Below are positions 41,305 through 60,306 of a stretch of 64,000 nt of DNA, in pieces. The DNA is from Desulfatiglandales bacterium (GTDB taxonomy: Bacteria; Desulfobacterota; DSM-4660; Desulfatiglandales; Desulfatiglandaceae), in NCBI GenBank assembly GCA_963662465.1, contig OY759599.1, positions 8,064,001 through 8,128,000 on the forward strand, written 5' to 3'. The translations under genes were made by a program, and so were the position numbers. The notes beneath the pieces were generated by a model. That model searched no databases. It saw only the letters and a program-made list of their open reading frames with translations, and was not told the DNA's origin. Position 1 is the stretch's first letter. The number at the start of each line of letters is the position of its first letter.

Positions 41305-42957
41305 ATGAAAAACAATCAACCCAACATCGCCGTCATCGGCTCCGGCTACTGGGGCAAGAACCTCGTTCGAAACTACCACCAGATCGGTGCTCTCAAACTC
41401 ATCTGCGATAAAAACGAAACCGTCCTCTCCAGCTTTCAAGAGCAATACCCCGGCGTGGACACCTGCATGGCCCTAAACGACACCCTCTCCCGAGAAGACA
41501 TCCAAGGCATCGTCATCGCCACACCGGCCGAAACCCACTACATCCTGGCTCGGGAAGCCCTTCTTGCCGGTAAACACGTCTACATCGAAAAACCCCTGGT
41601 ACTCAAAGAGGAAGATGGGCAGGATCTGATCCGTCTGGCCAAAGAGAAAGATCTGGTTCTCATGGTCGGCCACCTGCTTCAGTACCATCCCGTCTTTCTC
41701 AAACTGAAGGAGATGGCCGCCTCCGGTGAACTGGGCCGCATCAACTACATCTATTCCCATCGCCTCAACCTAGGCAAAATCCGGCGCGAAGAAAATATCC
41801 TCTGGTCCTTCGCCCCCCACGATATCTCCATGATCCTCTCCCTGGCTGGGGAAGAACCGGATGAGGTCATGGCAACCGGCGGCAACTACCTGCACAAAAG
41901 GATCGCCGACGTGACCACCACCCACCTGGAGTTCCCCTCGGGCCTTCGCGCTCACATCTTTGTCTCCTGGCTGCACCCCTTCAAGGTCCAGCAACTGGTG
42001 GTGGTTGGGGACAAAAAGATGGCGGTATTTGACGACACCCAACCATGGGAAGACAAATTGCTGCTCTACCCCCATGAAATCAAATGGCAGAACAACATCC
42101 CCATCCCCTCCAAAGGGGAAGCCGAAAGGGTCGATATTCCTCAGGCCGAACCACTCAAAATGGAATGCGAACATTTTCTCCATTGCATGACAAATTGCCG
42201 GAGACCCCAGACCGACGGTGCCGAAGGCCTCCGCGTTCTCCGTATCCTGAATGCCGCACAACAATCGCTGGATGGTGACAGTGAGAAGATTGATCTCGCG
42301 CAAAGACGCAAAGACGCAAAGGGAACAGAGAAAGGGGTATTGGAAAAGAAACCGACCACCGACCACCGACCACCGACCACTGATTTTTTTGCTCACGAAA
42401 CGGCCCTTATTGACGATAATGTAACAGTCGGGGATGGAAGCAAAATCTGGCATTTCAGTCACGTACTTTCCAACTCGACCATCGGTGAAAACTGCAACAT
42501 CGGGCAGAACGTGGTGATCGGTCCGGATGTCACCATCGGTAAAGGGTGCAAAATCCAGAACAACGTCTCCGTCTACAAAGGCGTCACCCTGGAAGACGGG
42601 GTCTTTTGCGGTCCCTCCATGGTTTTTACCAACATCTACAATCCAAGAGCTGAAATCCGGAAGATGGACCAGGTACGTCCCACCTTGGTCAAACATGGCG
42701 CAACCCTGGGCGCCAACTGCACAATCGTCTGTGGAACCACCATCGGGGAATACGGCTTTGTGGGCGCCGGCGCCGTGGTCACCCGAAATGTCCCTAGGCA
42801 TGCCCTAATGTTGGGCAATCCAGCCAGAAGGGTCGGATGGATGTGCCAATGCGGAGAACGCCTCACCGACGACCTCGACTGCCTCACGTGCGGAAAGACC
42901 TATGAAAAGAATGAAGAAGGCCTAAAAGAAAAAATTAGACAGGATCAACAGGATTAA
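41305..42957 (+). CDS. Gfo/Idh/MocA oxidoreductase fused to a hexapeptide N-acetyltransferase (WbpB/WbpD-like)
   Basis: GSGYWG, EKP, HDIS; then [28 protein letters not shown]. Confidence 0.9.
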
Positions 42958-43023
42958 CAAGATTAAAAACAAAAACAATCCTGCAAAATCCTGTAAATCC
43001 TGTCTAAAAAAAGAGAGGAAAAA

Positions 43024-44115
43024 ATGCAATTCATAGACCTAAAAACCCAACAATCCCGCATCCGTCAAAAACTCGAAGCCCGAATAAATCATGTCCTCGA
43101 TCACGGTCAATACATCATGGGCCCGGAAGTGAAAGAGCTGGAAGAGAAGCTCCGTGCTTTCATCGGCACCAACCACTGCATCACCTGTTCATCCGGCACC
43201 GACGCCCTACTCATCGCCCTCATGGCTCTGAACATCGGTCCCGGTGACGAGGTGATCACCGTCCCCTACACCTGGATTTCAACCGCCGAAGTCATTGCGC
43301 TCCTGAACGCCAAACCCGTTTTCGTGGACATCCAGCCCGACACCTTCAACATGAACCCGGATCTGATTGAAGCGGCCATCACCCCCAATACCAAAGCCAT
43401 CATGCCGGTGAGTATCTATGGCCAATGTGCGGACATGACCCGGATCAATGCCATTGCGGAAAAGCACAGCATCCCGGTCATCGAAGACGGCGCCCAGAGT
43501 TTCGGCGCCACTCACTACGAGCAAAAGTCCTGCGGTCTTTCCGCTATTGGCTGCACGTCCTTTTTCCCGTCCAAACCCCTGGGCTGTTATGGCGACGGTG
43601 GCGCCATCTTCACCCATGATGATGGATTGGCGGAGAAAATGCGACAGATCCGCGTCCACGGTCAGAAGGTCAAGCATCAGCATCCCCTGGTCGGCATCAA
43701 TGGACGTTTGGACACCCTGCAGGCAGCCATTCTGCTTGAAAAATTGGAGCTATTCCCCGAGGAATGCCGGCTACGCTGGGAAGTCGGGCAGCGTTACAAT
43801 GAACTCCTTTCTGAAGTCACAGGTATTAAAGCCCCCGTCATTTCAAAGGGAAACGATTCCGTCTATGCCCAGTATACGCTTCTAACGGAAAATCGCGACA
43901 AGGTATCGAATGTGCTGAAGGCAGAGGGCATCCCATCTGTAGCCTACTATGCCGTACCGTTGCACCTGCAGGGGGCATTTACAGATCTCGGTCATAAAGC
44001 AGGGGATTTTCCCGTTGCGGAATATGTTGCGGCAAACTGCCTGAGTTTACCCATGCATCCATATCTCAGTCTGGAAGACCAGAAGCGGATCGCTTCCGCC
44101 ATTGAAGATGGATGA
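43024..44115 (+). CDS. DegT/DnrJ/EryC1/StrS aminotransferase (WbpE-like)
   Basis: SSGTDAL, IEDGAQSFGA, SFFPSKPLGCYGDGG. Confidence 0.93.
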   Translation: MQFIDLKTQQSRIRQKLEARINHVLDHGQYIMGPEVKELEEKLRAFIGTNHCITCSSGTDALLIALMALNIGPGDEVITVPYTWISTAEVIALLNAKPVFVDIQPDTFNMNPDLIEAAITPNTKAIMPVSIYGQCADMTRINAIAEKHSIPVIEDGAQSFGATHYEQKSCGLSAIGCTSFFPSKPLGCYGDGGAIFTHDDGLAEKMRQIRVHGQKVKHQHPLVGINGRLDTLQAAILLEKLELFPEECRLRWEVGQRYNELLSEVTGIKAPVISKGNDSVYAQYTLLTENRDKVSNVLKAEGIPSVAYYAVPLHLQGAFTDLGHKAGDFPVAEYVAANCLSLPMHPYLSLEDQKRIASAIEDG

Positions 44116-44292
44116 TGGTCATTAACTCAAAACCCATAACCCAACACTCAAAACTGATTTTCCACCCATGCATCCATATCTCAGCGGTGAAGACCAAAAG
44201 CGAATCGCGGTCAGTATTGGAGATGGGCGATGTAACTGTTTAACTGGGGTTGGCAACGTCTCCCATTATACAAGATTTGACAACGATCCTTA

Positions 44293-44321
44293 TTGACTAA
44301 AATAGCCGATATGTCTATAAT
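44293..44321 (+). promoter_or_regulatory. Sigma70 promoter of the TA cassette
   Basis: TTGACT-17-TATAAT. Confidence 0.75.
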
Positions 44322-44357
44322 GCCTACATTAGCTAACAATCAATTGGGGGATATAGT

Positions 44358-44600
44358 ATGGACGTTACGGCGACAGAGTTGAAAAACAGATTGGGGAGAT
44401 ACCTGGATACGGCCGAGAGGGTTCCTGTCATTGTCAAAAAGTCAGGAAGGAAAAAGTCAGTCATCATATCCCATAGAATGTATGAGAGATTCCTTGAAAT
44501 GGAGGACACATACTGGGCTCAGAAGGCTCGCGAAGCTGAAGAGGGGGGCTACTTGGGTGAGATTGAAACCAAACGCCTTTTGAGCGAAGAAGATGTATAA
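44358..44600 (+). CDS. Phd/YefM antitoxin
   Basis: VTATELKNRLGRYLD..PVIVKKSGR. Confidence 0.88.
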   Translation: MDVTATELKNRLGRYLDTAERVPVIVKKSGRKKSVIISHRMYERFLEMEDTYWAQKAREAEEGGYLGEIETKRLLSEEDV

Positions 44601-44868
44601 GCTGGATATCACCAAGGCTGCCGGAAAATTTGTCAAAAAATTGGATGCAAAACAATACCGTCAAGTATTATCAAAAATTCTGGAACTGAGAGAAGAGGCC
44701 GATCCCCATGACTCAAAGCAACTCATCGGCAGCCCTGAGTACAGACGAGTGGATATAGGTGAGTATCGTGTCATCTATAGAGTTGAAAAAGATACTGTTA
44801 AAATCGCTGTCGTTGGCAAACGAAACGATGACGATGTTTACAGAAGATTTAAAAGAAAAGACAAATGA
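44593..44868 (+). CDS. RelE/ParE toxin
   Basis: YRRVDIGEYRVIY..VGKR. Confidence 0.9.
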   Translation: MYKLDITKAAGKFVKKLDAKQYRQVLSKILELREEADPHDSKQLIGSPEYRRVDIGEYRVIYRVEKDTVKIAVVGKRNDDDVYRRFKRKDK

Positions 44869-45113
44869 GTGTAATAAGGGAAATTAGAGAAGTTCTTGAT
44901 GGGTCGATTTCTATCGATATGCCGGCAAGCCTGCTTCATCGGAAAGTGGAGGTGATTGTTATTCCTTTGGATGAAATCTCCAGTGATGATGATTTTAATG
45001 GGGAGGATACCTGGCCTTACGGATTTTTTGAGAAAACGGTCGGTTGCATGGCTGATGATCCTATTCGAAGGCCAGATCAAGGGGAGTACGAACAGCGGGA
45101 GCTTCTTGCATGA
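44865..45113 (+). CDS. Putative antitoxin of the downstream VapC
   Basis: VEVIVIP..RPDQGEYEQRE; ATGA overlap with vapC. Confidence 0.7.
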   Translation: MSVIREIREVLDGSISIDMPASLLHRKVEVIVIPLDEISSDDDFNGEDTWPYGFFEKTVGCMADDPIRRPDQGEYEQRELLA

Positions 45114-45523
45114 GATACCTTCTCGACACGAATGTGTGTATTTCGTATTTGAATAACCCTCAGTCACCCGTTCGTTTTCATCTCGAGCGCTCGGAACCAA
45201 GCTCCATATTTGTATGTTCTGTCGTGAAGGCCGAGCTTTATTTCGGCGTAATGAATAGTCAGTGGTCAGAGAAGAATCTGGAAAAGCTGGAAGTTTTTCT
45301 GAAGCCGCTTGGCTCTTTTCCCTTTGATGACTTGGCAGCTAAACATTATGGGGAAATACGAGCGAAGTTATCAAAAGCAGGCAAAGTGATAGGACCTCAC
45401 GATATTCAAATCGCCGCTATTGGGCTCTGCCGGGAGGCGATTCTTGTAACACATAATACACGAGAGTTTTCGCGTGTGGAAGGCCTGGTTGTTGAAGACT
45501 GGGAATTGGAAAAACGCAGTTGA
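45110..45523 (+). CDS. vapC: VapC/PIN-domain toxin
   Basis: YLLDTN, IGPHDIQIAA, LVTHNTREF. Confidence 0.92.
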   Translation: MRYLLDTNVCISYLNNPQSPVRFHLERSEPSSIFVCSVVKAELYFGVMNSQWSEKNLEKLEVFLKPLGSFPFDDLAAKHYGEIRAKLSKAGKVIGPHDIQIAAIGLCREAILVTHNTREFSRVEGLVVEDWELEKRS

Positions 45524-45539
45524 GTACCAACCCCCATTA

Positions 45540-45735
45540 CACTCGCCGCTTGGATGGATGAAGCCGTGAAGCACAGGAACAAACATCGTGAGGTCAAGTG
45601 GACGGAAAGCATCGCGGCCTGCCCAGTTAAATCTGGTTGTTCTATTTAACCGGGGTGGGAAGCAAGGAGTTCGTGGAAAAGATCAAAGAAAAGCTGAAGG
45701 CCTTATTTCTGAGTCGTAAGGTGGAAGGGGAAGAA
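45540..45735 (+). pseudogene. C-terminal fragment of a REP-associated (IS200-like HUH) transposase, interrupted by a REP hairpin
   Basis: REVKWTESIA|VGSKEFVEKIKEKL after removing about 45618-45654; family recalled, not searched. Confidence 0.55.
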
Positions 45736-45937
45736 TGCCGATATCTCACAGAGGAAGACCAAAAGAAAATTGCGGCTGCTATCGGGGATAGACCATAGCC
45801 GAAAGCCTTAACCCATAGCCTGTTTTTCGTGCCCATAGCCTATCGCCCCATAGCCTAATACCTTTTACACCTTGGTTTTCTTCGTTACCTTCTTTAAAAA
45901 TATGTAAAGATCTAAATATCCCTTTTGTGAGGTAGAG

Positions 45938-46162
45938 ATGAAATTTAGAGCGGTCATAAAGAAATCAGAGGGCTGGTGGATTGGCTGGCTGGTCGATTTG
46001 CCAGGTGTAAATGCTCAGGAAAAGACACAAAAGGAACTGCTTGATTCTTTAAGAATCGGCGCTGAAGATATGCTTTCGATGGAAGTCCCTTTTGAGCCCG
46101 AAGCGCAAATGACGACCGTTATGGTCAAAGATCCGGCATGGGCGGAAAACCAGACTGCCTAA
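45938..46162 (+). CDS. HicB-like antitoxin, orphan
   Basis: WWIGWLVDLPGVNAQEKT..EL. Confidence 0.8.
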   Translation: MKFRAVIKKSEGWWIGWLVDLPGVNAQEKTQKELLDSLRIGAEDMLSMEVPFEPEAQMTTVMVKDPAWAENQTA

Positions 46163-46317
46163 AATTGCAACAGCTATCGTCCCAACCTGTAGCCCATGGC
46201 CCATCGCCTAATACCTTTTCATTCTTCGTTTTCTTCGTTACCTTCTGTAAAAAGCCCTTAACAAAAATCCTGTAAAATCCTGTAAATCCTGTCTAAAAAA
46301 AAACCGGAGACCCCTTG

Positions 46318-48072
46318 ATGCAACAACACCAACCCAATGCAACCATTGACCACGCCTCCTCTCCTCTCGACGTGTCCACCTCCCCCAGCGGAGAGGAGTT
46401 CCCTTTGCCGCGGCCCGAGGACTATAACCAGGAATTCAAGAGACTCAAGCAACTGGTGAATGAACAACGCCTCAAAGGACGGGAAATTGTCGTCGTCATG
46501 GGTGTCGGGTTTGTGGGCGCTGTCATGGCGGGCGTGGTTGCCGACTCCGTGGATGGGGAAACAGGGGAATCCAGGTACTTCGTCATCGGTATGCAGCGGC
46601 CTTCTCCCCGATCTTTTTGGAAAATCCCGTACCTAAACCGGGGCATTTCCCCTGTGGAGGCTGAAGACCCGGATGTGGCGCCCTTGATTCAACGGTGTGT
46701 ACAGGACAAGCAGACCCTCACAGCCACCTTTACCTACGACGCTCTGTCACTTGCTGATGTGGTGGTAGTGGATGTTCAGTGCGATTACCACAAGGAGAGC
46801 CTGGGGAATGTTCGTCAGGGACATGCCGACATAGAGGCGCTGGAAGAGAGTCTCAAGATTATCGGAGAGAAGATTGAAGCGCACTGTCTGGTCTTGATCG
46901 AAACGACCGTTCCTCCCGGCACCACGGAGTATGTGGCTTTCCCCATCATAAAAAGGGCCTTTGAAAAACGCGGCCTTTTCCAGAAACCGACCTCCGACCT
47001 CCGTCCTCTGACCTCCGACCTCCGTCCTCCGACCTCCGACCTCCGAAAAACGGCGGAGCCGCTTTTAGCCCATTCCTTTGAGCGGGTCATGCCTGGGCGG
47101 GAATACGTGGCCTCCATCCGCGACTTCTGGCGGGTTTGCTCCGGTATCAACCAAGAATCCAGGGAGCGGGTGGAACTGTTTTTGTCCAACATCCTGAATG
47201 TAGATAAGTTCCCCCTGACCGTGCTGGACCGGCCCATTGAAAGCGAGACCTGCAAGATCGTAGAGAACTCCTACAGGGCCACCATTCTGGCATTCATGGA
47301 CGAATGGAGCCGGTTTTCCGAGAAAAACGGGGTTGACCTCATCAAGGTCGTGAAGGCCATCAAGGTGCGACCCACGCACGCCAACATGATTTTCCCCGGT
47401 CCCGGCATTGGGGGATACTGCCTTCCGAAAGACGGAGGTCTTGGCGTCTGGGCCTATCATACGCTTATGGGGTTTGAAGATGACATCTTCAAGATCACCC
47501 CCATGGCCATCGACATCAACGATACCCGTGCCCTGCATGTGGCCCAGTTGGTGCGTGATGCGCTGCGGAATATGGGACGGATAGTGGCCGCCTCCAAAAT
47601 TGCGGTATTGGGCGCCTCCTACCGGGAAGATGTGGGCGACACGCGTTACAGCGGTTCAGAGATGGTCGTCCGGAAACTCACGGAGATGGGCGCGGATGTG
47701 GTGGTTCATGATCCGTATGTCAGCCACTGGTGGGAGCTGGAAAAGCAGGATACCTATCCCTCTCCCGGCCATTCGTGGTCGCGGTTTTTCAGGAACCAGG
47801 AAAAGTTGAAGGAAACCGTTGTCCAAGATGACCTGAATAAGACCCTGTCCGGAGCCGATGCCGTTATTTTGGCGGTGAGACATCAGGCTTATCTCAATCT
47901 GGACCCGGATGGGGTGGTGGAAATGATCGGTGGTCCGGCGGCTGTGGTGGACTGCTTCGGGGTGTTGGACGATGTGGCCATCAAGCGGTATTTCGAGTTG
48001 GGCTGCGAGGTCAAGGGACTTGGGCGGGGGCATATTAAGCGGATTAAGGATGCGGTCAGAGCTTCTGCGTAG
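46318..48072 (+). CDS. Nucleotide-sugar 6-dehydrogenase (UDP-glucose/GDP-mannose family)
   Basis: GVGFVG, ETTVPPGTT, ERVMPG, KIVEN, GGYCLPKD. Confidence 0.9.
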   Translation: MQQHQPNATIDHASSPLDVSTSPSGEEFPLPRPEDYNQEFKRLKQLVNEQRLKGREIVVVMGVGFVGAVMAGVVADSVDGETGESRYFVIGMQRPSPRSFWKIPYLNRGISPVEAEDPDVAPLIQRCVQDKQTLTATFTYDALSLADVVVVDVQCDYHKESLGNVRQGHADIEALEESLKIIGEKIEAHCLVLIETTVPPGTTEYVAFPIIKRAFEKRGLFQKPTSDLRPLTSDLRPPTSDLRKTAEPLLAHSFERVMPGREYVASIRDFWRVCSGINQESRERVELFLSNILNVDKFPLTVLDRPIESETCKIVENSYRATILAFMDEWSRFSEKNGVDLIKVVKAIKVRPTHANMIFPGPGIGGYCLPKDGGLGVWAYHTLMGFEDDIFKITPMAIDINDTRALHVAQLVRDALRNMGRIVAASKIAVLGASYREDVGDTRYSGSEMVVRKLTEMGADVVVHDPYVSHWWELEKQDTYPSPGHSWSRFFRNQEKLKETVVQDDLNKTLSGADAVILAVRHQAYLNLDPDGVVEMIGGPAAVVDCFGVLDDVAIKRYFELGCEVKGLGRGHIKRIKDAVRASA

Positions 48073-48513
48073 GGAACTATAAATGTAAGAGTTGGCAACT
48101 CAAAACTCAAAACCCAAAACTCAAAACTCAAAACCCAAAACCATCTTTGCTCTCTTCGTTACCTTCTGTAAAAAGCCCTTAAAAAAAATCCTGTAAAATC
48201 CTGTTAATCCTGTCAAAAAAAGAGTTATGGAATTATGAACAATGTCCCCCATTCCCCTCTATCTCACAGAGGATGACCAAAAGAAAATTGCGGCTGCTAT
48301 CGGGGATAGACCATAGCCTAATACCTATCGCCCATAGGGGGAGGAATATGAGGGAAACCAGTGGCATTATGAACTGGGAGAGAAAGGGGCTGCTTACAGT
48401 GCCAATTTTGCCCCCAAAAATGTACTTCTAAGCCCAGAAAACGCATATATTTTGGACTTAAATATTGAATAATCAATAGGATAGTTTGGTCAGACCCCAG
48501 ACTGCAGCATGAC

Positions 48514-49368
48514 ATGAGCGCAGAAAATAAAATTCAGTTATTTCAAAACCAAAGCGTAAGAACACATTGGGATGAAGAACAAGAAAAATGGTTTTTTTCT
48601 ATTGTGGATGTTATTGCAATTTTAACGGAGCAAAAAGATTATCAAGGAGCAAGAAATTACTGGAAAGTATTAAAACATAGACTTGTAAAAGAAGGAAACG
48701 AAACGGTTACAAATTGTAACCGTTTGAAAATGATTGCCAAAGATGGCAAAATGCGAATGACTGATGTAGCTGATACTCAACAGCTATTACGTCTTATCCA
48801 ATCTGTTCCATCGCCGAAAGCAGAGCCTTTTAAAATCTGGTTGGCAAAAGTAGGTGCACAGCGGATAGACGAAATAGAGGATCCCGAACTATCTTTTGAA
48901 CGTGCTATGGAAACCTACCTTGCAAAAGGATACTCCAGGGAGTGGATAAACCAACGCCTGAAAAGTATTGAAGTTAGAAAAGAACTAACAGACGAATGGC
49001 AAGAAAGAGGAATGAAACAAGGCTTGGAATACGCCATTTTAACCAATGAACTCACTCAAGCCTGGGCCGGAAAAAATGTAAAAGAATACAAGAAATACAA
49101 AGGGTTGAAAAAGGAAAACTTGCGAGATAATATGAGCAACCTTGAACTGGTTTTGAATATGCTTGCAGAAGCTTCTACAGCAGAAATATCGAAAGAAAAG
49201 ATACCAAAAGGATTAGAAGAAAATAAGGATATTGCTCGTAAAGGTGGTAATGCTGCTAAAAAAGCAAGATTGGAGATTGAAAAACAAACAGGGAAACCAG
49301 TCGTAACAACTAAAAATGCAAACAACCTTTTAGACAAACCTAATCATGAAAATATTGAAAATGAGTAA
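48514..49368 (+). CDS. Bro-N domain protein
   Basis: WFFSIVDVI, RNYWKVLK, IQSVPSPKAEPFK, LRDNMS. Confidence 0.88.
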   Translation: MSAENKIQLFQNQSVRTHWDEEQEKWFFSIVDVIAILTEQKDYQGARNYWKVLKHRLVKEGNETVTNCNRLKMIAKDGKMRMTDVADTQQLLRLIQSVPSPKAEPFKIWLAKVGAQRIDEIEDPELSFERAMETYLAKGYSREWINQRLKSIEVRKELTDEWQERGMKQGLEYAILTNELTQAWAGKNVKEYKKYKGLKKENLRDNMSNLELVLNMLAEASTAEISKEKIPKGLEENKDIARKGGNAAKKARLEIEKQTGKPVVTTKNANNLLDKPNHENIENE

Positions 49369-49461
49369 ATCATTAGGCTTTTACAGCTTAGTTTTCTTCC
49401 TTAACTTCTGTAAAAAGCCCGAAGCAAACATCCTGATAATCCTGTAAATCCTGTCAAAAAA

Positions 49462-50240
49462 AATGGAGCCGGTTTTCCGAGAAAAACGGGGTTGACCTCA
49501 TCAAGGTTGTGAAGGCCATCAAGGTGCGACCCACGCACGCCAACATGATTTTCCCCGGCCCGGGCATTGGGGGATACTGCCTTCCGAAAGACGGAGGTCT
49601 TGGCGTCTGGGCCTATCACACCCTGATGGGGTTTGAAGATGACATCTTCAAAATCACCCCCATGGCCATCGACATCAACGATACCCGTGCCCTGCATGTG
49701 GCCCAGTTGGTGCGTGATGCGCTGCGGAATATGGGACGGATAGTGGCCGCCTCCAAAATTGCGGTATTGGGCGCTTCCTACCGGGAAGATGTGGGCGACA
49801 CGCGTTACAGCGGTTCAGAGATGGTCGTCCGGAAACTCACGGAGATGGGCGCGGATGTGGTGGTTCATGATCCGTATGTCAGCCACTGGTGGGAGTTGGA
49901 AAAGCAGGATACCTATCCCTCTCCCGGCCATTCGTGGTCCCGGTTTTTCAGGAACCAGGACAAACTGAAGGAAATCGCCGTTCAGGATGACCTGAATAAG
50001 ACCCTGTCTGGAGCCGATGCCATTATTTTGGCGGTGCGACACCGGGCCTATCTTGATCTGGACCCGGATGGGGTAGTGGAAATGATCGGGGGTCCGGCGG
50101 CCGTGGTGGATTGTTTCGGGGTGTTGGACGATGCGGGGATCAAGCGGTATTTCGAGTTGGGTTGTGAAGTGAAAGGCCTGGGTCGAGGCCACGTGAAACG
50201 GATTAAAGACAAGGTGCGCAGTGCTTTTCAGAGCCGATAA
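49462..50240 (+). pseudogene. 3' half copy of the nucleotide-sugar dehydrogenase
   Basis: Near-identical to 47303-48060; starts abruptly after the 9-mer repeat. Confidence 0.9.
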
Positions 50241-50369
50241 AAAATAAACCCGCTCACCCCTTTACACTATCACGGTAATCGGAAAATCGAAAGAAACGCA
50301 TGAATGCATGGGCGTCCCTCTGCCCAAAAACTCAAAACTCAAAACCCAAAACCCAAACCCAACCCCCAA

Positions 50370-51096: not shown

Positions 51097-51105
51097 GCAT
51101 TAAGA

Positions 51106-51142: not shown

Positions 51143-51226
51143 ACGTGAGGTCCGACCCCAAGCTCCTAAATGATATAGAAGTATAGAATTGCAAACCGAC
51201 GTTCCCCATTGTACATTGGAGAGGAT

Positions 51227-51403
51227 ATGTCCAAAGAGATTGGAAAACACTTTTCGAATATGTCATTAGTTTTTCTCGGCGGTGTTTTTGTTCAATCTGC
51301 TTTGAAGGAAGACTGGAGGATAGCACTTGTAGGACTTGGATTTAGCGTATTTTTCACATGTTTAGGCGCTGCAATCTTAGCAAAACAAAAGGAGAAAGAA
51401 TAA
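51227..51403 (+). CDS. Small two-TM protein, followed by a 29-aa single-TM ORF at 51403-51492
   Basis: GAGGA RBS, hydrophobic, TAATG coupling. Confidence 0.55.
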   Translation: MSKEIGKHFSNMSLVFLGGVFVQSALKEDWRIALVGLGFSVFFTCLGAAILAKQKEKE

Positions 51404-51767
51404 TGCTTGAGGTATTTATAGCGGCCGGGATAGCTTTCGGGATTCTGGGTATATTTCTTTACAAACTTCTTACCAAAGAAAAGAAAACCTAGCGGCATAT
51501 CCAAGATGCCGCAGCTCGGAGTTCTGTAGATTCGGAACGTCCCTTTTTTACCCATTCGAAAGCTTTTTCTTAAAGGCCCCATTTTGACCCCAAAAAAAGG
51601 TCTTCCAAGGTCTTAAAACAGTCTGTTTTTGAGCTGTATTGCAACCCTATCAGTTTGTTACTGAGGCCCTCAAGACCCCTGAAAAAATTAGCCAGGGTTT
51701 ACAAGGTTAACGAGATAAAATAATAAAAAAATCCTGCAAAATCCTGTTAATCCTGTCAAAAAAAAAA

Positions 51768-52063
51768 GGTCCCGGTTTTTCAGGAACCAGGACAAACTGA
51801 AGGAAATCTCAGTTCAGGATGACCTGAATAAGACCTTGTCCGGAGCCGATGCCGTTATTTTGGCGGTGCGACACCGGGCCTATCTTGATCTGGACCCGGA
51901 TGGGGTGGTGGAAATGATCGGTGGTCCGGCGGCTGTGGTGGACTGCTTCGGTTTCTTGGACGATGCAGCCATCAAGCGGTATTTTGAGTTGGGTTGTGAG
52001 GTTAAAGGTCTTGGCCGGGGGCATATTAAGCGGATTAAGGATGCGGTCAGAGCTTCTGCGTAG
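51768..52063 (+). pseudogene. 3' end copy of the dehydrogenase
   Basis: Matches 47777-48072. Confidence 0.9.
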
Positions 52064-52186
52064 GGAACTATAAGCTGTATTTTTTTCCTTAACTCAAAAC
52101 CCAAAACCCAAAACCTGGGCGTCCCACTGCCCATAATGAGAATTGCTGCTTGACATCCGCCGCTCCTTGGAATATATGTTCGCACC

Positions 52187-52570
52187 ATGAACCAATCATT
52201 CGAACAGGAAATCCGGTACAAGATCCTCAAGATTTTAGCCGCTGAACCCCATATCGCCCAGCGGGAACTGGCCCGCCGGATGGGCATCAGCCTGGGCAAG
52301 ACCAACTTTGTCCTGTCCGAGCTGGCGGAAAAGGGCATCATCAAAATCAAGCGTTTCAAGGACGCGCCCCAAAAGATTCCCTATTCCTACATGTTGACGC
52401 CCCTGGGCCTGGAGCAAAAAGCCAAAATCACCGCCCTGTTCCTGAAGCGAAAATTAATGGAATACGAAGAAATCAAATACCAGATAGAAGAAATCACCGA
52501 AGAACTCAAAACAGTCGAAAACCTGGGTGATTCAGACCTGCATTTATTGAAAGAAACAGCCAAAATTTAA
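52187..52570 (+). CDS. MarR-family EPS-associated regulator, second copy
   Basis: AQRELARRMGISLGKTNF, YSYMLTPLG; TTGACA at 52150. Confidence 0.88.
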   Translation: MNQSFEQEIRYKILKILAAEPHIAQRELARRMGISLGKTNFVLSELAEKGIIKIKRFKDAPQKIPYSYMLTPLGLEQKAKITALFLKRKLMEYEEIKYQIEEITEELKTVENLGDSDLHLLKETAKI

Positions 52571-52761
52571 ACGGAAGACTTAAAACGTAAAACGTAAAAC
52601 CTTTTCCCCACTTTCGTAACTCAAGGGGCGGAGCTGTCTGAAGCGGCAAGCCGCGGATTTAAGTTTTACGTTTTAGGGGGATAACCTTACAAACCTGCCA
52701 ACGTCCCATTACGTCCCCCTAATTAAAGGGCGTTATGCTATTAGGATGAAGGAGGTTGCAG

Positions 52762-53351
52762 ATGGAGACACAAACATCAAAAACAAAAACCTCTTCTTTG
52801 GAAGCCATTGTTCGCAAAACCATACAGAGCAATTTGTTGGAAGGGATTATCGAAATTCCTAACAAACTTAGGAATCGTTTGGTGGAGGTGATTCTTTTGC
52901 CTGTTGTTAGTGAAAAACACAACGGTCAAAGTAATATGAAGTCAGGTTCCTCTCTGAAGCGCTTCGCAGGTGCATGGTCCGGGGAACAACTCGTCAGGGA
53001 AGATCAGGGAAACTATGAGGTCCGTTTCTTTCAGCTGATCCAGCAACAATTTGGCTTTGTTCGGTTGTAAAAGCCGAATTGTTCTTCGGTGCTCTGAAAA
53101 GTGTTCGAATCAAAGAAAACCTTCGGCTTTTGGATGAATTGTTTGCAAATTTCGATTCTGTTTTTTTTGACGACGATGCTGCTCGAAAATACGGCGAGAT
53201 CCGTTCGGATCTTGCTCGGAAGGGTACTCCAATTGGTCCGAACGATTTGATGATTGCGGCTATAGCTTCAGTGCATGAGGCAGTACTTGTTACGCATAAC
53301 ACCAGAGAATTTGCGCGAGTAATAGGCCTCACAATTGAAGACTGGGAATAG
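52762..53351 (+). pseudogene. Antitoxin-vapC pair with a deletion across their junction
   Basis: Paralogous to 44865-45523; vapC lacks YLLDTN but keeps CSVVKAEL..IGPNDLMIAA..VTHNTREF. Confidence 0.8.
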
Positions 53352-53626
53352 CCAAAAAGAGCTGATCTGTATCCAAAGGAAGCAAGAAGGGAATGAGATA
53401 ATCTGCACTCACGCCACAAAAGCCCTTTTGATTCCCATGCTGCACGATGCTAGGAAAAAAGGTGTAGGGTATAGGGTTTAAGGTATAAGGCGAACCCCGC
53501 ACCTTGTTCCCTACACCTTAAACCTTAAACCCTGAACCCTGCGTAAAGAAAGCCTGACCCCAGCAATAGAAAAAAAAAGATAAATCCTTGAAATCCTGTT
53601 AATCCTGTCAAAAAAAAAGGCTGAAA

Positions 53627-53842
53627 ATGAAAACTACCCAAGCCAACATCGCCTTCATCGGTGCCGGTGCTGTGGTCACACGAAACGCCCCGGCCCACGC
53701 CCTCATGCTCGGCAACCCCGCTCGCAGAACGGGCTGGATGTGCCGGTGCGGAGAACGCTTGACCGACGACCTGGACTGCCTTGCCTGCGGCAAAACCTAT
53801 GAAAAAAACGAAGACGGCTTAAAAGAAATTAGACAGGATTAA
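53627..53842 (+). pseudogene. Collapsed wbpB-wbpD gene (first 12 codons joined to the last about 59)
   Basis: MKTTQANIAFIG + [19 protein letters not shown]. Confidence 0.85.
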
Positions 53843-53994
53843 CAGGATCAACAAGATTAAAAACAAGAAAACAATCCTGCAAAATTCTGTTAATCCTGTC
53901 AGAAAACAGTTTTTTGTTGAAAAAACCTTTCAGATGTGTATAAGAACTTGCCTTCTTTGTAAAGCATCCGGTAATATTTGATAATCTTCTTGAG

Positions 53995-54528
53995 ATGATG
54001 GGGTCGAATGCTGAAATTGTCTATGTTGATAAAATCGTTCCCGATGCTTACCATGGAACTGAGCTTAAAACAGCTCTAAAAATACTCAGAGGAAAGAACT
54101 TTATTCCGAGCAGAGGGAAAGAAACATATTTAGGGGATGGCGTATATTTTTACGAAAGCTCATTATGGCACGCCAGACAATGGTGTCAAAGGCGTTTTCC
54201 TGGTTTAAGACATGGTGTAATTTGTGCTGCAATCAATTTAAGGAGGTGTTTGGACCTCCATAATTACGAACACCGCAAGCTTCTTCAGCAAGTAAGATTA
54301 AACTTGGAAATGAAAGGTTACAAAAAATTAACCGACACTTTTTTGATAAACTTCTGCGCTACCAACATAAAAGAATTTGACACCGTTAGATGGACATACA
54401 CCGCAACTGGCGGCAAATATGGCAAAATATATCCAGGATCAAGAATAGATGATTTTTCACAGCTCATAATTTGCGTAAGAAACCAGGAATCAATTCTCAG
54501 CATTGAACTGGCTGATGAGGGGGGCTGA
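53995..54528 (+). CDS. Putative ADP-ribosyltransferase-fold toxin
   Basis: AYHGT, LGDGVYFY, QLIICVRN. Confidence 0.65.
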   Translation: MMGSNAEIVYVDKIVPDAYHGTELKTALKILRGKNFIPSRGKETYLGDGVYFYESSLWHARQWCQRRFPGLRHGVICAAINLRRCLDLHNYEHRKLLQQVRLNLEMKGYKKLTDTFLINFCATNIKEFDTVRWTYTATGGKYGKIYPGSRIDDFSQLIICVRNQESILSIELADEGG

Positions 54529-54530
54529 AA

Positions 54531-54803
54531 ATGGAAAATGAGTTAAGAGATTTCAGGCAAAAAATAGTTCAGTATTTTTCCGAAATAAGCGATGACCAAC
54601 TCCGTAAAGATATGGAAAAGGCCGGATATGAGGTTTATAAAAATGTAGATGTCCATATTTTGAGCGATGCTGTTTCTGAAGAAGAATTTACATTTTCGGT
54701 AAAGAGCAGAACAGCCCGGACTGCCTTCAACAAAGTAGACCTTAGGTTTCATAACGTTTTTACGCCAGACAACCATCCATATAATTTCAAGATTGCTGCT
54801 TAA
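54531..54803 (+). CDS. Putative antitoxin with extended C-terminal tail
   Basis: 90 aa between the toxin and the SecB-like gene; ends YNFKIAA. Confidence 0.6.
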   Translation: MENELRDFRQKIVQYFSEISDDQLRKDMEKAGYEVYKNVDVHILSDAVSEEEFTFSVKSRTARTAFNKVDLRFHNVFTPDNHPYNFKIAA

Positions 54804-54818
54804 AGGCGCCTTCATAAA

Positions 54819-55283
54819 ATGATGACAAGTCAGGCACAATTCAAACACCATCCCATCTGTTTGAGGGATGTGCGGGTTATAGAACTATACATCAGAGGAA
54901 ATATCCATCCTGATGAAATCAACGAAGAGCAAGCAGCGAGGAACTCATCAATTAACGTTGGTCATTCTGAATACGACACGGCAAACCATCGTATAGTTGT
55001 GGGTCTCACTTTAGAACTCAAAGAGGGTGAGGAAAAGGAAAGTGAATTGCCCTATTTCCTCAAGGTTGAATTAGCAGCCTTGTTCGAAGTTGATGAGTCT
55101 AAGTTCGACAAAGAACACATTTATGATTGGGCCAGAAGGAACGCGCCATTTATTCTTTTTCCATACCTAAGAGAAGAAGCTTATGCTCTCACAATAAGGG
55201 CTGGTTATAAGCCGTTAATTCTTCCTCTTCTTGAAGTTCCTACATTTCAATCCGAAAGAATGGCTCCAACAACTGGACTGTGA
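54819..55283 (+). CDS. SecB-like chaperone
   Basis: VELAALFEV, NAPFILFPYLRE..LT.RAG..PLILP. Confidence 0.88.
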   Translation: MMTSQAQFKHHPICLRDVRVIELYIRGNIHPDEINEEQAARNSSINVGHSEYDTANHRIVVGLTLELKEGEEKESELPYFLKVELAALFEVDESKFDKEHIYDWARRNAPFILFPYLREEAYALTIRAGYKPLILPLLEVPTFQSERMAPTTGL

Positions 55284-55338
55284 GCAATTCTTTTCGCAAA
55301 AGAAATCCTGTAAAATCCTGTTAATCCTGTCTAAAAAA

Positions 55339-55737
55339 ATGGAACAGGAAGACCTAACCCACAAAATCATCGGCTGTGCCTACAAAGTATATAACACCCT
55401 CGGCTTCGGTTTCCTTGAAAGCATCTATCACAAAGCCATGCTGATCGAACTTGCCGAAGTCGGGATGGTTGCCGAATCAGAAAAACCCCTGAAAGTCACT
55501 TACAGAGACAAAATAATTGGTGAATTTTCAATAGACATATTCGTTGAAAATGAAATCATCGTGGAACTCAAATCCGTTGAGCATCTGGTGAAAGCCCATG
55601 AGGTCCAGGTCGTCAACTACCTCACAGCCTCAAAAAAGGAAATCGGTCTCCTCATCAACTTCGGACCCACCGGAGTCAAAGTTAAAAGAAAATACAGAAA
55701 AAGTCTTGCACAGTATTTACAGGCTCAACCAGATTAA
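55339..55737 (+). CDS. GxxExxY protein (PD-(D/E)xK nuclease-like)
   Basis: LGFGFLESIY, DIFVENEIIVELKSV, QVVNYL, GLLINFG. Confidence 0.92.
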   Translation: MEQEDLTHKIIGCAYKVYNTLGFGFLESIYHKAMLIELAEVGMVAESEKPLKVTYRDKIIGEFSIDIFVENEIIVELKSVEHLVKAHEVQVVNYLTASKKEIGLLINFGPTGVKVKRKYRKSLAQYLQAQPD

Positions 55738-55944
55738 AACCAAAAAAAATCCTGTAAAATCCTGTTAATCCTGTCAAAAACAAATGCACTTCATAGATTT
55801 ATCAGCCCAACAACAAAACACTTAGACAGGATTTACAGAATCAACAAGATTAAAAACAAAAAAAATCCTGCAAAATCCTGTTAATCCTGTCTAAAATGTT
55901 TTTCACAAAATACAACAGAGCCAAGAAAACCTTTTCCCTTCGTT

Positions 55945-56025
55945 ACCTTTACAGTCCCGAGCAATCAGGAATACTCCGTACCGCAGGTCAAGATGTTACT
56001 GAAAGAAGTTGAAGTGGGAATAGGG
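55945..56025 (+). pseudogene. HicA-like toxin 3' fragment
   Basis: TVPSNQEYSVPQVKMLLKEVE. Confidence 0.5.
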
Positions 56026-56029
56026 GGCA

Positions 56030-57265
56030 AAACCTTTGCGAACACATCGAGGAGGGCCGGATCATACAGTCTGTGAACTGGTACTTGCTTCCTTTTCTGG
56101 AATGGCTTGCACAACACTGGGATCCCCTTCTGCATGAACAGAGACTTCCGATTAAGCACAGCGATGCCGGCAATACCGCATGGGCTTCTTTTCAGAGCCA
56201 CTTCCAGCCCCCCATCGGTTACGATCACGATCAGGCCTCAGAATGGGATACGAAGTGGGATGCCTGGATGACTCGGCACAGTCTCCTAATGGCCAGGGCC
56301 GGAGGACTTTTTCCAGATCTTTTCATTCGGCGGTATCGCGATCAAATAGAACTATCATGGGGAGAGATCTTGCACCCCGGCGCGCCCCGGGGGTTCCGTT
56401 TTTGCGCTCCTGCCGGGTTCGTACGGCTACCGCCTTCCACGGTTTCTCAACCCCTTTTCCAATTGTTGCTGGGATCCGCCCAATTCTTAATGGGGCGATG
56501 CGTCGATTCACAGAGGATAAAAACCCTCACCCAGGCAATTCAGAATATTCCGCGGGCTGATCAAACACCGCGTCTGGCCTGGCTGGCGGGTTTGGACCTG
56601 CAAATCGGGAAAGCCATAGGCCGGTGGAATCGATTTGCGGAGAAAGTCTCCGGTACGCTGGGCGATGCGGGCAAGCGCCTTTTTTCAGAGAGCCAATGTC
56701 TAGAAAATATCGTTATAACAGGTTCTTGCGATGCAGCCATGATGTTCGGTTCTCTTGCGCCGACCATAGAGGAAGAAGATGTGTTGGCGATTGCTCGAAA
56801 GATGATCGAAGCTGCGGAGCAGGAACAGCATGACGAATTATTGGAGCAAATGACAAGGCCAATTCAGTTGGATGACGATCCATCGCCCCCGTGGGAACAA
56901 GGCTATAATCTGGCCATGCCCTTATGCGAGGACATGGCCGTCAGCCAAACCGGCAGTTCTGTTGATGTGGCAAACGTGCTAAAGGGATTGGGTATTCATT
57001 TTGGGGAGATTGCCTTGACAGACAGCGAGATCCGGGCAATTAGCCTTGCAGGCCCTCATCATCACCCGACCATCCTGCTTAATATGAATAACCCTACAAA
57101 TCAGTACGATTCAGGCCGTCGATTCACCTTTGCCCATGAACTGTGTCATCTCCTTTATGACCGAACATACGGTATGAAACTGGCGATGGCGTCAGGCCCG
57201 TGGGCGCCCAGGGATATCGAAAGACGCGCCAATGCCTTTGCGGCCATGTTTATTATGCCCACCCA
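56030..57265 (+). pseudogene. ImmA/IrrE-family metallopeptidase gene, apparently truncated at both ends
   Basis: RRFTFAHELCH, ERRANAFAAMFIMP, then unrelated sequence. Confidence 0.75.
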
Positions 57266-57740
57266 TTTTAACTTTCATGAAATCATTGCAAACTCCTGAG
57301 TTCTCAGACTTAATCCATGATCGAGAAGGGAATAAGCAGCTTCAATTTTAGACGGTTGCTCGGCGTTGAGGGAAGGGTGGTTTTGGGTTTTGGGTTTTGG
57401 GTTTTGAGTTTTGGGTTTTAGGTTTTGGGTTTTGGGTTTTGAGTTTTGGGTTTTGGGTTTTGAGTTTTGGGTTTTGGGTTTTTCAGTCAATGAACTTCTT
57501 GTTTTTTGTGACAGAAAACCTGGAAATAAGGTACTAGGCTTTTTCCGAGACTACGCTCGGAAAAAGTGGCTTCTTGGAAGCCCTCAAGGATACAACTAGC
57601 TGTATTTTTTTCCTTAACTCAAAACCCAAAACCCAAAACCCAAAACCCAACACCCAACACCATCTTTGCTCTCTTCCTTACCTTCTGTAAAAAGCCCTAA
57701 AAAAAATCCTGTAAAATCCTGTAAATCCTGTCTAAAAAAA

Positions 57741-58036
57741 GGTCCCGGTTTTTCAGGAACCAGGACAAACTGAAGGAAACCGCCGTTCAGGATGACCTGA
57801 ATAAGACCCTGTCCGGAGCCGATGCCATTATTTTGGCGGTGCAACACCGGGCCTATCTTGAACTGGACCCGGCTTCTGTGGTTGAAATGACCGGCAACCC
57901 TGCCGCCATTGTGGACTGTTTCGGCATTCTGAACGATGCGGCCATCAAGCGCTACTTTGAACTGGGCTGTGAGGTCAAAGGTCTCGGCCGGGGACATGTG
58001 AAACGAATCAAGGATGCGGTCAGAGATTCTGCGTAG
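57741..58036 (+). pseudogene. 3' end copy of the dehydrogenase, more diverged allele
   Basis: ELDPASVVEMTGNPAAIVDCFG vs NLDPDGVVEMIGGPAAVVDCFG. Confidence 0.9.
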
Positions 58037-58196
58037 GAAAGCATAACAAAAATAAATCCTAAAAATCCTGTTAATCCTGTCTGAAAAAGAGTTATGGAAT
58101 TATGGAACAACGCCCCCCATTCCTACGGGGTGCCAAAAAAACGAAAGGTTCACGAGTAAAGAACCAAGCACTTAGAAAGATGGAGGACTGTGTGTA

Positions 58197-58403
58197 ATGG
58201 CAAAATTAACACTAGAATATTGGGAAGACGATGGATGGCTTGTCGGCCGCCTGATAGAGGTCCCCGGCATTTTTAGTCAAGGCGAAACAATGGAAGACCT
58301 TAAGGAAAACATCCAGGATGCTTATAAGTTAATGTTGGAAAGTGAACCTATGGAATCTTTCCCTAAACCACGTAATCGGATTCCCTTTGAGGTAAGGGTT
58401 TGA
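58197..58403 (+). CDS. hicB: HicB-like antitoxin
   Basis: GWLVGRLIEVPGIFSQGETMEDL. Confidence 0.85.
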   Translation: MAKLTLEYWEDDGWLVGRLIEVPGIFSQGETMEDLKENIQDAYKLMLESEPMESFPKPRNRIPFEVRV

Positions 58404-58585
58404 AGCGAAGAGAATTCATCCGTAAATTGTCAAATGAAGGATGTTCTTTATATCGTCGAGGCTCCAGGCATGACATCTATTTGAATTCCCAAACCGGTAA
58501 AAAAGCACCAGTTCCAAGGCATCAAGAAATCAAGAATTCTTTATGCGCACTTATCAGGAACCAACTTGGACTCTTGAAAGAATAA
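58400..58585 (+). CDS. hicA: HicA toxin
   Basis: RRGSRHDIY..VPRHQEI. Confidence 0.88.
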   Translation: MKRREFIRKLSNEGCSLYRRGSRHDIYLNSQTGKKAPVPRHQEIKNSLCALIRNQLGLLKE

Positions 58586-58689
58586 TACATGCCATCATCT
58601 ATCACCCCTAACCTAACCTTATTGGAGGTAAGTCAAGCAGAGACCTTTATATTAGCAAGGATGTCCCACATTGCGAACTTTCAAGCGCC

Positions 58690-58893
58690 CTCAAGGCCAA
58701 AGACATCCCCTCTGTCGCCTATTATGCGGTACCGCTTCATCTGCAAGGCGCCTTTGCCGATCTGGGTTATAAACCCGGCGACTTTCCCGTGGCTGAGCAT
58801 GTTGCGGCCAAGTGCCTTAGCCTGCCGATGCATCCGTATCTCAGCGGTGAAGACCAAAAGCGAATCGCGGTCAGTATTGGAGATGGGCGATAG
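58690..58893 (+). pseudogene. 3' end copy of the DegT gene (shorter copies near 44165, 45738, 48258)
   Basis: IPSVAYYAVPLHLQGAF..LSLPMHPYLS. Confidence 0.88.
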
Positions 58894-59039
58894 GTACAGA
58901 TAGATGTAAGAGTTGGCAACTCAAAACCCAAAACCCAAAACCCAACACCATCTTTGCTCTCTTCCTTACCTTCTGTAAAAAGCCCTTAAAAAAAATCCTG
59001 TAAAATCCTGTAAATCCTGTCTAAAAAACCGGAGAACCC

Positions 59040-59940
59040 TTGATGCAACAAAAACAACCCAATGCAACCATTAACAACGCCTCCTCTCCTCTCGGCGTGT
59101 CCACCTCCCCCAGCGGAGAGGAATTCCCTTTACCACGGCCCGAGGACTATAACCAGGAATTCAAGAGACTCAAGAAACTGGTGAATGAACAACGGCTCAA
59201 GGGCCGGGAAATAGTTGTTGTCATGGGTGTCGGGTTTGTAGGCGCTGTTATGGCGGGTGTGGTTGCCGACTCAGTGAATCGGGAAACGGGGGAATCCAGG
59301 TATTTCGTCATCGGCATGCAGCGGCCTTCTCCCCGATCTTTCTGGAAAATCCCGTACCTCAACCGGGGCATTGCCCCCGTGGAAGCCGAGGACCCGGATG
59401 TGGCGCCCTTGATTCAACGGTGTGTACAGGACAAGCAGACCCTCACAGCCACCTTTACCTACGACGCCCTGTCACTTGCGGATGTGGTGGTAGTGGATGT
59501 TCAGTGCGATTACCACAAGGAGAGCCTGGGGAATGTTCGTCAGGGACATGCCGACATCGAGGCGCTGGAAGAGAGTCTCAAGATTATCGGAGAGAAGATT
59601 GAACCGCACTGTCTGGTCTTGATCGAAACGACCGTTCCTCCCGGCACCACGGAGTATGTGGCATACCCCATCATAAAAAGGGCCTTTGAAGCGCGCGGGC
59701 TTTTTCAGATATCAGATGTCGGAGATCAGCGATCAGAGCAGGTAAATCCCGAATCAGAGCCCAAATCTCAGTCCTCCTTGCCCCGTGAAATTCACGTCAG
59801 TGACGAACACAGCGAATTTCACCGGGGTGACCTCCGTCCTCCGACGTCTGACCTCTGTCCTCACCCGTGCCTTGCATGTGGCCCAGTTGGTGCGCGATGC
59901 GCTGCGGAATATGGGACGGATAGTGGCTGCTTCCAAAATT
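59040..59940 (+). pseudogene. 5' copy of the dehydrogenase, broken at the repeat-bearing loop
   Basis: Matches 46315-46983, then heptamers plus REP, then a short piece matching 47525-47600. Confidence 0.9.
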
Positions 59941-60104
59941 ATTCCAGCGCTTGAATCGGAGAAGCCGGCGAAAGATAGATGTAAGAGTTGGCAACCCAAA
60001 ACTCAAAACTCAAAACCCAACACCATCTTTGCTCTCTTCCTTACCTTCTGTAAAAAGCCCTTAAAAAAAATCCTGTAAAATCCTGTTAATCCTGTCAAAA
60101 AAAA

Positions 60105-60253
60105 GGTCCCGGTTTTTCAGGAACCAGGACAAACTGAAGGAAACCGCCGTTCAGGATGACCTGAATAAGACCCTGTCCGGAGCTGATGCCGTTATTTTGG
60201 CGGTGAGGCATCGGGCCTATCTTGATCTGGACCCGGATGGGGTGGTGGAAATG
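60105..60253 (+). pseudogene. Short internal 3' copy of the dehydrogenase
   Basis: Same start point as the 51768 and 57741 copies. Confidence 0.88.
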
Positions 60254-60306
60254 CCCACCTATTTTTGAAGATGATTTTGGCGAAACGCTGTGTTAGCCGA
60301 AGATTC

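Follow-up and report, generated by a model that had tools for sequence, protein, structure and literature searches.

How does the head of a polysaccharide locus come to be crowded with partial copies of its own genes? The question is raised by a 64,000-nt stretch of the genome of a Desulfatiglandales bacterium (assembly GCA_963662465.1, contig OY759599.1), hereafter the window, which lies on a single 8.16-Mb contig (G000:8064001-8128000). Within the window, positions 41305-60253 carry an intact wbpB-wbpD fusion, an intact gene for a WbpE-like DegT aminotransferase and an intact gene for a nucleotide-sugar dehydrogenase (DH), together with 13 pieces of the same three genes, every one on the + strand; in a self-comparison, 42% of this region occurs repeated inside it. 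We found that this region, the front of the surface-sugar gene cluster, holds a stack of accessory cassettes, spaced by sugar-gene ends that come from the alleles of other strains. In our estimate the probability is roughly 0.6 that this tandem stack was built and reshuffled by homologous recombination within the gene ends and the short repeats that adjoin them. These repeats are R1, a repeat of ATCCTG 9-mers (AAATCCTGTAAAATCCTGTWAATCCTGTC followed by an A-run), and R2, a one-sided motif (AACGTCCCCCATT). The window haplotype is referred to as E; two other loci of the same genome, S (contig start, 46-59 kb) and M (7.00-7.09 Mb), contain the same genes and pieces, and a fourth such locus is found in G010, a different species of the same genus whose core DNA is 87-90% identical.

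The principal evidence comes from the repeated use of a few junctions. Seven DH pieces in G000, three in the window and four in locus M, start at nt 1463 of the gene; the nt 1495 start is found once each in locus M and G010, the nt 1645 start twice in M and once in G010, and the nt 989 start in the window and in haplotype S, with different alleles after the same junction. The nt-1495 form appears to be the nt-1463 form minus 32 bp. Over the Bro-N cassette, E and S show a single difference in 1,200 nt; past the nt-989 junction they have 32 nt in common and then differ at 50 of 423 nt, 41 of these differences being at third codon positions. In locus M, the Bro-N cassette is followed by the nt-1495 junction instead. 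Because the same cassette and junction precede DH alleles that are 12% apart, we conclude that scars are reused as crossover points. The same junction types thus recur in locus M, in haplotype S and in the other species, and around the nt-1463/1495 junction we count three left contexts and five tails.

The pieces themselves are mosaic. Those that start at nt 1463 or 1495 differ from each other at 2-9 positions in their first 94 nt (11-14 for one outlier) and at 4-25 positions in their last 93 nt. A breakpoint was found at p<0.05 in 8 of 12 pairs (uncorrected p 0.002-0.037), of which four survive Bonferroni correction, and the intact E-M pair of DH genes had no breakpoint in the same test. The piece at 57741-58036 crosses over to a distant allele near nt 1595, and exchange between a piece and a full-length gene is seen when S is compared with the window allele. 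Between loci, cargo is 97-100% identical and the flanking sugar genes are 5-17% different; therefore, the crossovers fall inside scars and repeats. The PIN-domain pair of the 44256-45523 cassette is 95-98% identical to a cassette in a genome of another genus (G084). With the exception of a DDE transposase at 35938, no recombinases were found among the 32 proteins scanned (window 35.9-63.9 kb). As a separate observation, the full-length DH gene of haplotype S (G000:52911-54679) is missing 10 bp (nt 1456-1465) where the common junction lies, which shifts the frame; beyond this deletion the gene has the fragment-type haplotype, which may reflect a real event or an assembly error.

The origin of the pieces can be judged from the kind of differences they carry. 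For 11 pooled window pieces compared with the resident genes, with three pieces left out as too short for alignment to the resident allele, the proportions of synonymous (pS) and nonsynonymous (pN) differences are 0.335 and 0.048, and dN/dS is 0.11 (departure from neutrality, Fisher p about 4e-91), within the range of 0.08-0.16 seen in pairs of intact genes. Because the differences are mostly silent, the pieces are the ends of alleles that worked elsewhere, and decay in place is excluded as their origin. The C-terminal tails of intact DH relatives from metagenomes vary like those of the pieces, and the degT end at 45742 and the wbpD end at 53650 are nearly exact matches to intact genes of G010. 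The latter genome matches 53650-55779 at 98.9% identity and has an intact wbpB-wbpD where the window has the stub at 53627, which is a 1,425-bp internal deletion between repeats alike at 15 of 18 nt; therefore, whole alleles also arrive and collapse.

These results bear on a first-pass annotation of the sequence, whose inventory of one intact wbpB-wbpD, degT and DH with five DH, two acetyltransferase, two degT 5' and four degT 3' pieces is confirmed in full, strand included, as are the C-termini RASA*, RSAFQSR* and RDSA* and the view that the pieces represent different alleles. It needs correction on some points: a second intact DegT-family gene (32% identical) starts at 60265; the 50308 piece is an open frame with its own ATG and the complete acetyltransferase domain, and may be a working second WbpD; and the joint repeats and the remnant of a Y1 transposase gene (45545-45768) were missing from its list. 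Its proposal that cassettes travel with gene ends as homology arms is borne out by the mosaic pieces and the E/S comparison, in which these ends act as crossover points. Its idea of one scar per acquisition is not supported in that form: a small number of junctions (DH nt 989, 1463, 1495 and 1645) are inherited and reused, the nt 1463 one seven times in G000, and one stub or more arose when a complete incoming allele lost its interior. The further suggestion that the pieces act as templates for rearranging surface-glycan genes finds some footing in the exchange between pieces and full-length genes and is otherwise weak, as the differences are mostly silent and the genes that would determine the glycan type lie downstream, unmatched between haplotypes (E and S share no match of at least 300 bp there over about 21 kb). 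In pilS-type antigenic variation, silent copies carry amino-acid diversity that alters the expressed product; a dN/dS of 0.11 is not of that kind. The pieces would be recombination handles, not silent templates for new glycan chemistry.

The process that we favour would begin with a rare illegitimate join that fuses a repeat end (the R1 A-run, R2 or a heptamer tract) to the interior of a sugar gene, or with deletion of most of a redundant incoming gene; either would yield a repeat|gene-end junction. As the mosaic sequence shows, an incoming segment of the form gene end-cargo-repeat|gene end then crosses over with a resident copy of that end, which adds cargo without loss of the intact gene and displaces the previous end downstream together with its cargo. 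RecA and an uptake route would presumably serve this step; the genome has a comEC homologue, a weak indication as 10 of 14 control genomes also carry one. The same junction is reused and moves from strain to strain, from locus to locus and from species to species, acquiring another allele tail and other cargo on each occasion.

Several points weigh against this account. The crossovers are read from mosaic sequence, and the breakpoint pairs were chosen after the alignment had been viewed. The nt-1463 site resembles the nt-989 site (TGGNNCCGGTTTT) and the 10-bp deletion of S ends there, so a nuclease might make the nt-1463 junction repeatedly. R2 is the site of three junctions, and its sharp end hints at an enzyme. 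Of 209 genomes of the order (three candidates scored per genome), just two have the repeat+DH junction; therefore, the DH hub is a local trait. Finally, the order of the cassettes on one molecule is that of the assembly and is only probable.

The C-terminal 107 aa of DH match 15 places in G000, four in G010 and two each in G022 and G134, and one place in each of the remaining 109 of the 113 matching genomes (123 searched), many of these single-match genomes being fragmented assemblies that could conceal further copies. In metagenomes, the 80 stretches retained of 528 confirmed, many of them on short contigs, include two with R1 and a few that are broken or partial, and there was no window-like array among these 80; an exact 28-nt DH pattern had no matches in the metagenome and genome collections. 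A single scar was seen in G022, of another genus (G022:C1:1955435-1960476), where an intact DH gene is followed 2 kb on by a broken partial copy without R1.

R1 is found upstream of the intact genes and of all four DH junctions, in 15 copies on the + strand of the region, and is nearly confined to the E, S and M loci. Within the family, R1 is present in 54 of 105 genomes (none for a reversed control). A search of genome contigs with the R1 pattern returned 13 loci, three of them in G010, and the other 10 had no matches to the window sugar genes. The R1-rich regions of G064 and G010:C7 had no sugar-gene fragments either; therefore, R1 alone does not imply scars. Of the 10 fragment starts in the window, eight have a copy of R1 or R2 or a heptamer tract within 25 nt, compared with 4% of positions (p 3e-10), a post hoc and descriptive count in which one junction is entered three times and which could reflect selection to keep toxin-antitoxin genes whole. 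Two side observations concern these repeats. A small element starting TGCCCCGT is inserted in R1 at the same point at G000:52838, 7038153 and 7083964 and at G109:C1:1311646. Heptamer tracts occur in frame within the wbpB-wbpD linker (42350-42385) and DH (46990-47045), where their sequence and length differ among alleles, and also at 40178-40314 and 57378-57482, one long tract being inverted relative to the others.

R2 has suggested a different engine. A Y1 (HUH) transposase would nick single-stranded DNA at the R2 end and mobilize the upstream DNA in a one-ended fashion, so that units starting mid-gene and ending at R2 join head to tail or re-enter as circles by homology; as the routine mechanism of the array we consider this doubtful. 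In 10 regions, selected for motif richness and to be read with that in mind, R2 is on the gene strand in 193 cases and on the other strand in two. Among 347 pairs of R2 copies with a common upstream 20 nt and different downstream sequence, identity ends within 6 nt of the motif end in 346 and within 2 nt in 315; one upstream family has 17 different downstream sequences in 19 copies. R2 follows the 3' end of all four Y1 genes examined, with an inverted R2 within 250 nt upstream of none of them. In the window, the motif is joined to gene interiors at 45545, 48260 and 58673; outside it, such fusions are seen in DH, degT, GxxExxY and Y1 genes. A large case, and the most suitable one for studying the R2 system, is a 125-kb polar array in G109, of another genus (C1:1277000-1400300), in which one strand carries 107 copies of R2, alongside many Y1 genes, whole or partial, many pieces of degT, MarR and GxxExxY genes, seven MarR_EPS genes and repeated coiled-coil genes; smaller cases are found in G049 and G084. 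Exact R2 matches were found in 36 of 123 genomes and a reversed control matched about 25 genomes once or twice; therefore, only high R2 counts are informative. The window itself, however, has only a Y1 remnant, the intact genes being in locus M, and all four DH junctions are at R1, not R2. A permuted join of 57597 to 52073 speaks for this route, although it amounts to one contig in one run (X20); no circle was seen among the contigs, and the chimeric pieces need homologous crossovers anyway. The two routes can act together. A wider version, in which Y1 cuts the one-sided repeat and fuses it into sugar genes, so that gene-end scars become recombination sockets of an integrase-free, integron-like capture system, is in our view conceivable, and we entertain it tentatively; in it, toxin-antitoxin, regulator and nuclease cassettes would be stacked at the head of the polysaccharide locus and traded across species.

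The seven pieces that begin exactly at nt 1463, together with the tyrosine recombinases at 18209-19510 and in locus M, might recall attR-type scars of integrase elements that insert at one DH site and restore its 3' end. This is very unlikely, as there is no integrase in the array, the junctions occupy four different positions of DH and also occur in three further genes, and their left arm is the same repeat that precedes the intact genes; the nearest recombinase belongs to an element linked to the transfer-messenger RNA (tmRNA) gene, and its att repeat does not flank the locus. Tandem duplication in place followed by decay of the copies is harder still to credit. Internal deletions between short repeats do occur (the 53627 stub; 59709-59863), but dN/dS is far from neutral, the pieces are closer to alleles of other loci and of G010 than to the resident genes, and cargo is nearer to identity than the genes around it. 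It is also unlikely, if less so, that the tandem order is a product of assembly, real cassettes having been concatenated from a number of strains that live together. Two haplotypes of the locus are indeed present in the contig, at its start and end, one with a tmRNA prophage, and no contig of the examined runs covers the whole array, one join departing from the window. On the other side, the repeats are shorter than 800 bp and 80-95% alike, locus M and G010, an independent genome, have the same junction types, contigs of two studies (X20 record 15 and X1 record 7) bridge the R2|degT junction at 58673, and G109 has the same kind of array.

The contig merges strains, which calls for caution, and the order of the pieces in the window, as assembled, is likely. 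The first-pass annotation had named pieces from different co-assembled strains as the finding that would overturn it; the recurrence of junctions in G010 and in contigs of two studies speaks against that for the junctions, less so for cassette order. X20, which may be the source sample, has contigs that carry several of the cassettes at 0-2 differences; M-type junctions occur as loose ends. The X20 join from 57597 to 52073 runs across a 43-bp direct repeat and could represent a circle, a tandem copy or another order. No R1|DH junction was bridged with 31 letters on both sides among the contigs listed. Contig depth over the DH end in X20 and X21 is far above that of the cargo, gives no copy number and was not used; runs X2-X19, whose shares are small, were left out of any reading of habitat.

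Identity between S and the window is 99.99% (12 kb) and 99.5% (10 kb) in the flanks and 93-96% in the sugar genes, and window positions 49884-60327 are missing from S; locus M has different, housekeeping flanks. We considered whether the contig start and end are a real large duplication and rejected this, as the first 29 kb are taken up by a prophage that terminates with a 39-bp att repeat, a copy of the tmRNA end. Compared with the window from 18092 to the contig end, G000:1-101959 represents a second haplotype with the tmRNA prophage, different insertion sequences and an unrelated glycan gene set, so that this one genome record contains two surface-sugar types of one locus. Both haplotypes have an element by the tmRNA gene (window 18209-25432) with tyrosine recombinase, primase-polymerase-like and MCM-like genes, and a 105-bp tandem repeat array in the locus tail (G000:8147984-8149128 and 86282-88975) whose copy number differs between them. 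Locus M (G000:7000000-7095000), of about 95 kb, has toxin-antitoxin cassettes, three Y1 genes, clusters of tyrosine recombinases and fragments of sugar genes of epimerase and asparagine synthase type. In the window, the neighbouring genes suggest a WbpA-like role for the intact DH, and the wbpB-wbpD fusion, the WbpE-like gene and DH together correspond to the known route to 2,3-diacetamido-uronic acids. The features are listed in Table 1.

Table 1. Intact genes, gene pieces, repeats and cargo cassettes in the window (DH positions in nt of the gene; M and S, other loci of G000)
Positions	Strand	Feature	Match or evidence
41305-42957	+	wbpB-wbpD fusion, intact (oxidoreductase + acetyltransferase; GFO_IDH_MocA + hexapeptide), 550 aa	
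42938-43012	.	Full imperfect palindrome of the R1 9-mer repeat; most joints have the half-repeat that forms its right arm	
43024-44115	+	WbpE-like DegT aminotransferase, intact	PDB WbpE match, E 1e-133
44154-44232	+	degT 3' end from nt 1018, immediately 3' of heptamer tract	
44256-45523	+	R2 motif, then cargo: Phd-ParE pair and PIN-domain pair	
45527-45768	+	Worn R2 motif joined to 3' remnant of Y1 (HUH) transposase gene (45545-45768)	
45742-45798	+	degT 3' end	Allele type intact in G010 (1 difference in 17 codons)
45938-46162	+	Cargo: 74-aa open reading frame without Pfam match	99% identical to M copy
46223-46301	+	R1 half-repeat unit upstream of intact DH	
46315-48072	+	DH, intact, C-terminus RASA*	
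48142-48316	+	R1 unit, R2 motif (48242-48253), degT 3' end (48260-48316)	
48514-49368	+	Cargo: Bro-N gene	100% identical in S and M
49384-50240	+	R1 unit joined to DH piece from nt 989 (49462-50240), C-terminus RSAFQSR*	
50308-50946	+	wbpD piece, open frame with complete acetyltransferase domain, starts in heptamer tract	85% identical to resident
51013-51093	+	degT 5' stub 3' of R1 palindrome	
51725-52063	+	R1 joined to DH piece from nt 1463 (51768-52063), C-terminus RASA*	
52073-52115 and 57598-57640	+	43-bp perfect direct repeat	
52187-52570	+	Cargo: MarR_EPS regulator (TIGR04176)	98% identical in G010, after DH nt-1495 piece
52756-53351	+	Cargo: small open reading frame and broken PIN gene	98% identical to M
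53570-53851	+	R1 and wbpB start fused in frame to wbpD end (piece 53627-53851)	
53995-55283	+	Cargo: three genes, the last SecB-like	99.5% identical in M and G010
55298-55783	+	GxxExxY gene (55339-55737) flanked by two R1 half-repeats	
55784-55896	+	degT 5' stub (55784-55813) joined to R1 palindrome	
56073-57299	+	Cargo: IrrE/ImmA-type peptidase M78 gene	87% identical to M
57661-58036	+	R1 unit joined to chimeric DH piece from nt 1463 (57741-58036), C-terminus RDSA*	
58110-58585	+	R2 motif, then cargo: hicB-hicA pair	
58661-58893	+	R2-like motif directly fused to degT 3' end (58673, from about nt 880)	
58951-59940	+	R1 unit, DH nt 1-670, repeat-rich linker, DH nt 1210-1287 (piece 59040-59940)	Similar deleted DH unit in M
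60024-60253	+	R1 unit joined to DH piece nt 1463-1611 (60105-60253)	
60265-61458	+	Second intact DegT-family gene; strain-specific glycan genes begin here	32% identical

Among the known systems that come close to the locus are the T6SS (type VI secretion system) effector-immunity arrays of Vibrio cholerae with their orphan Rhs 3' ends (Kirchberger et al., 2017, PMC5361080). There, as here, each new module is placed next to an anchor that is conserved, behind it, and displaces the older 3' ends with the genes that follow them; no integrase is known, and the arrays then move by ordinary recombination. The window likewise shows a single intact gene and, after it, orphan 3' ends that derive from other alleles and have their own downstream genes, and these ends have recombined with other alleles. 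However, the displaced part in T6SS/Rhs arrays is a variable toxin tip with an immunity gene, whereas here it consists of conserved sugar-enzyme ends with mostly silent differences, the cargo is unrelated, and a few junctions are reused many times. Thus, the locus works like a displacement array of this type and, lacking toxin tip and immunity gene, is not a member.

Other systems resemble the locus in part. In Neisseria meningitidis, galE2 of capsule region D/D' is also a 5'-truncated, mosaic sugar gene from another lineage that serves as a recombination point, but it is one duplicated block driving inversion (PMC6619384), whereas here 13 direct pieces of three genes have cargo between them. 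Remnants at block junctions mark past recombination in Salmonella O-antigen clusters as well, although these are single remnants of lost genes (PMC3715488) and not repeated, reused allele ends. The lpl cluster of Staphylococcus aureus similarly has a mobile unit formed by the 3' part of a gene and what follows, with recombination in the conserved core, but all its members are full paralogues (PMC2568036), unlike the one intact gene and fragments seen here. In ISCR1 complex class 1 integrons, a partial conserved segment (qacE-sul1) travels with cargo and re-enters by homology, the cargo lies between direct repeats, and a one-ended HUH element has been proposed to make the junction (PMC7707992). 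Each ISCR unit, however, has an IS91-like enzyme (PMC7707992), whereas the candidate Y1 is absent from most units here and most DH junctions are at R1 rather than the Y1-linked R2; no IS91-family transposase with oriIS was found among the proteins scanned (window 35.9-63.9 kb and locus M).

The Y1 proteins of locus M, one of them encoded at G000:7013342-7014421, combine Y1_Tnp and Bac_DnaA_C domains with HFH and YIHLNP motifs and are of the subclass 2.1 type by domains and motifs. They share the Bac_DnaA_C tail with the TIRtrons (TIRYT), which also have a repeat beside Y1 whose reverse strand starts GGGGAC (Di Nocera, 2013, PMC3733652; Quentin, 2018, PMC6006769); the reverse strand of R2 (GGGGACGT) fits GGGGWSAS in its first six positions and not in the last two. 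TIRtrons have inverted repeat pairs, whereas R2 is one-sided and polar, and the accessible parts of both papers describe neither polar arrays nor fusion to gene fragments; the accessible part of PMC5581495 added nothing on flanking motifs. As for integrons and integrase elements, the proteins of window 35.9-63.9 kb include no tyrosine recombinase that could serve as an integron integrase beside the array, and in place of a single crossover site, an element-specific arm and an integrase we found four DH junction sites with a generic intergenic repeat as the left arm. The ends of attC sites follow the consensus RYYYAAC/GTTRRRY; as read from the sequence, with no attC model search, the R1 palindrome lacks such ends and most of its copies are half-sites. 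Thus, the locus is not an integron, an integrase element, an ISCR or a TIRtron in the strict sense. No such polysaccharide-locus array or ATCCTG repeat is described in the literature covered, a search that most subscription papers fell outside and in which the supplements of PMC3733652 and PMC6006769 may list R2-like repeats.

Polysaccharide loci are known hot spots of gene exchange, and the addition of genes without an integrase, as opposed to their replacement, is poorly explained. Intermediates of such addition are preserved in the locus described here: its junctions are shared, its gene ends are chimeric, it exists in two haplotypes, and the cassettes recur in a second species. It also offers exact, testable sites. 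If recombination alone is at work, the locus represents a known process in an unusually dense form; the sharp, strand-biased R2 end is in turn a candidate substrate for a common group of Y1 enzymes. On the best reading, the locus is a displacement-type array made of sugar-enzyme ends.

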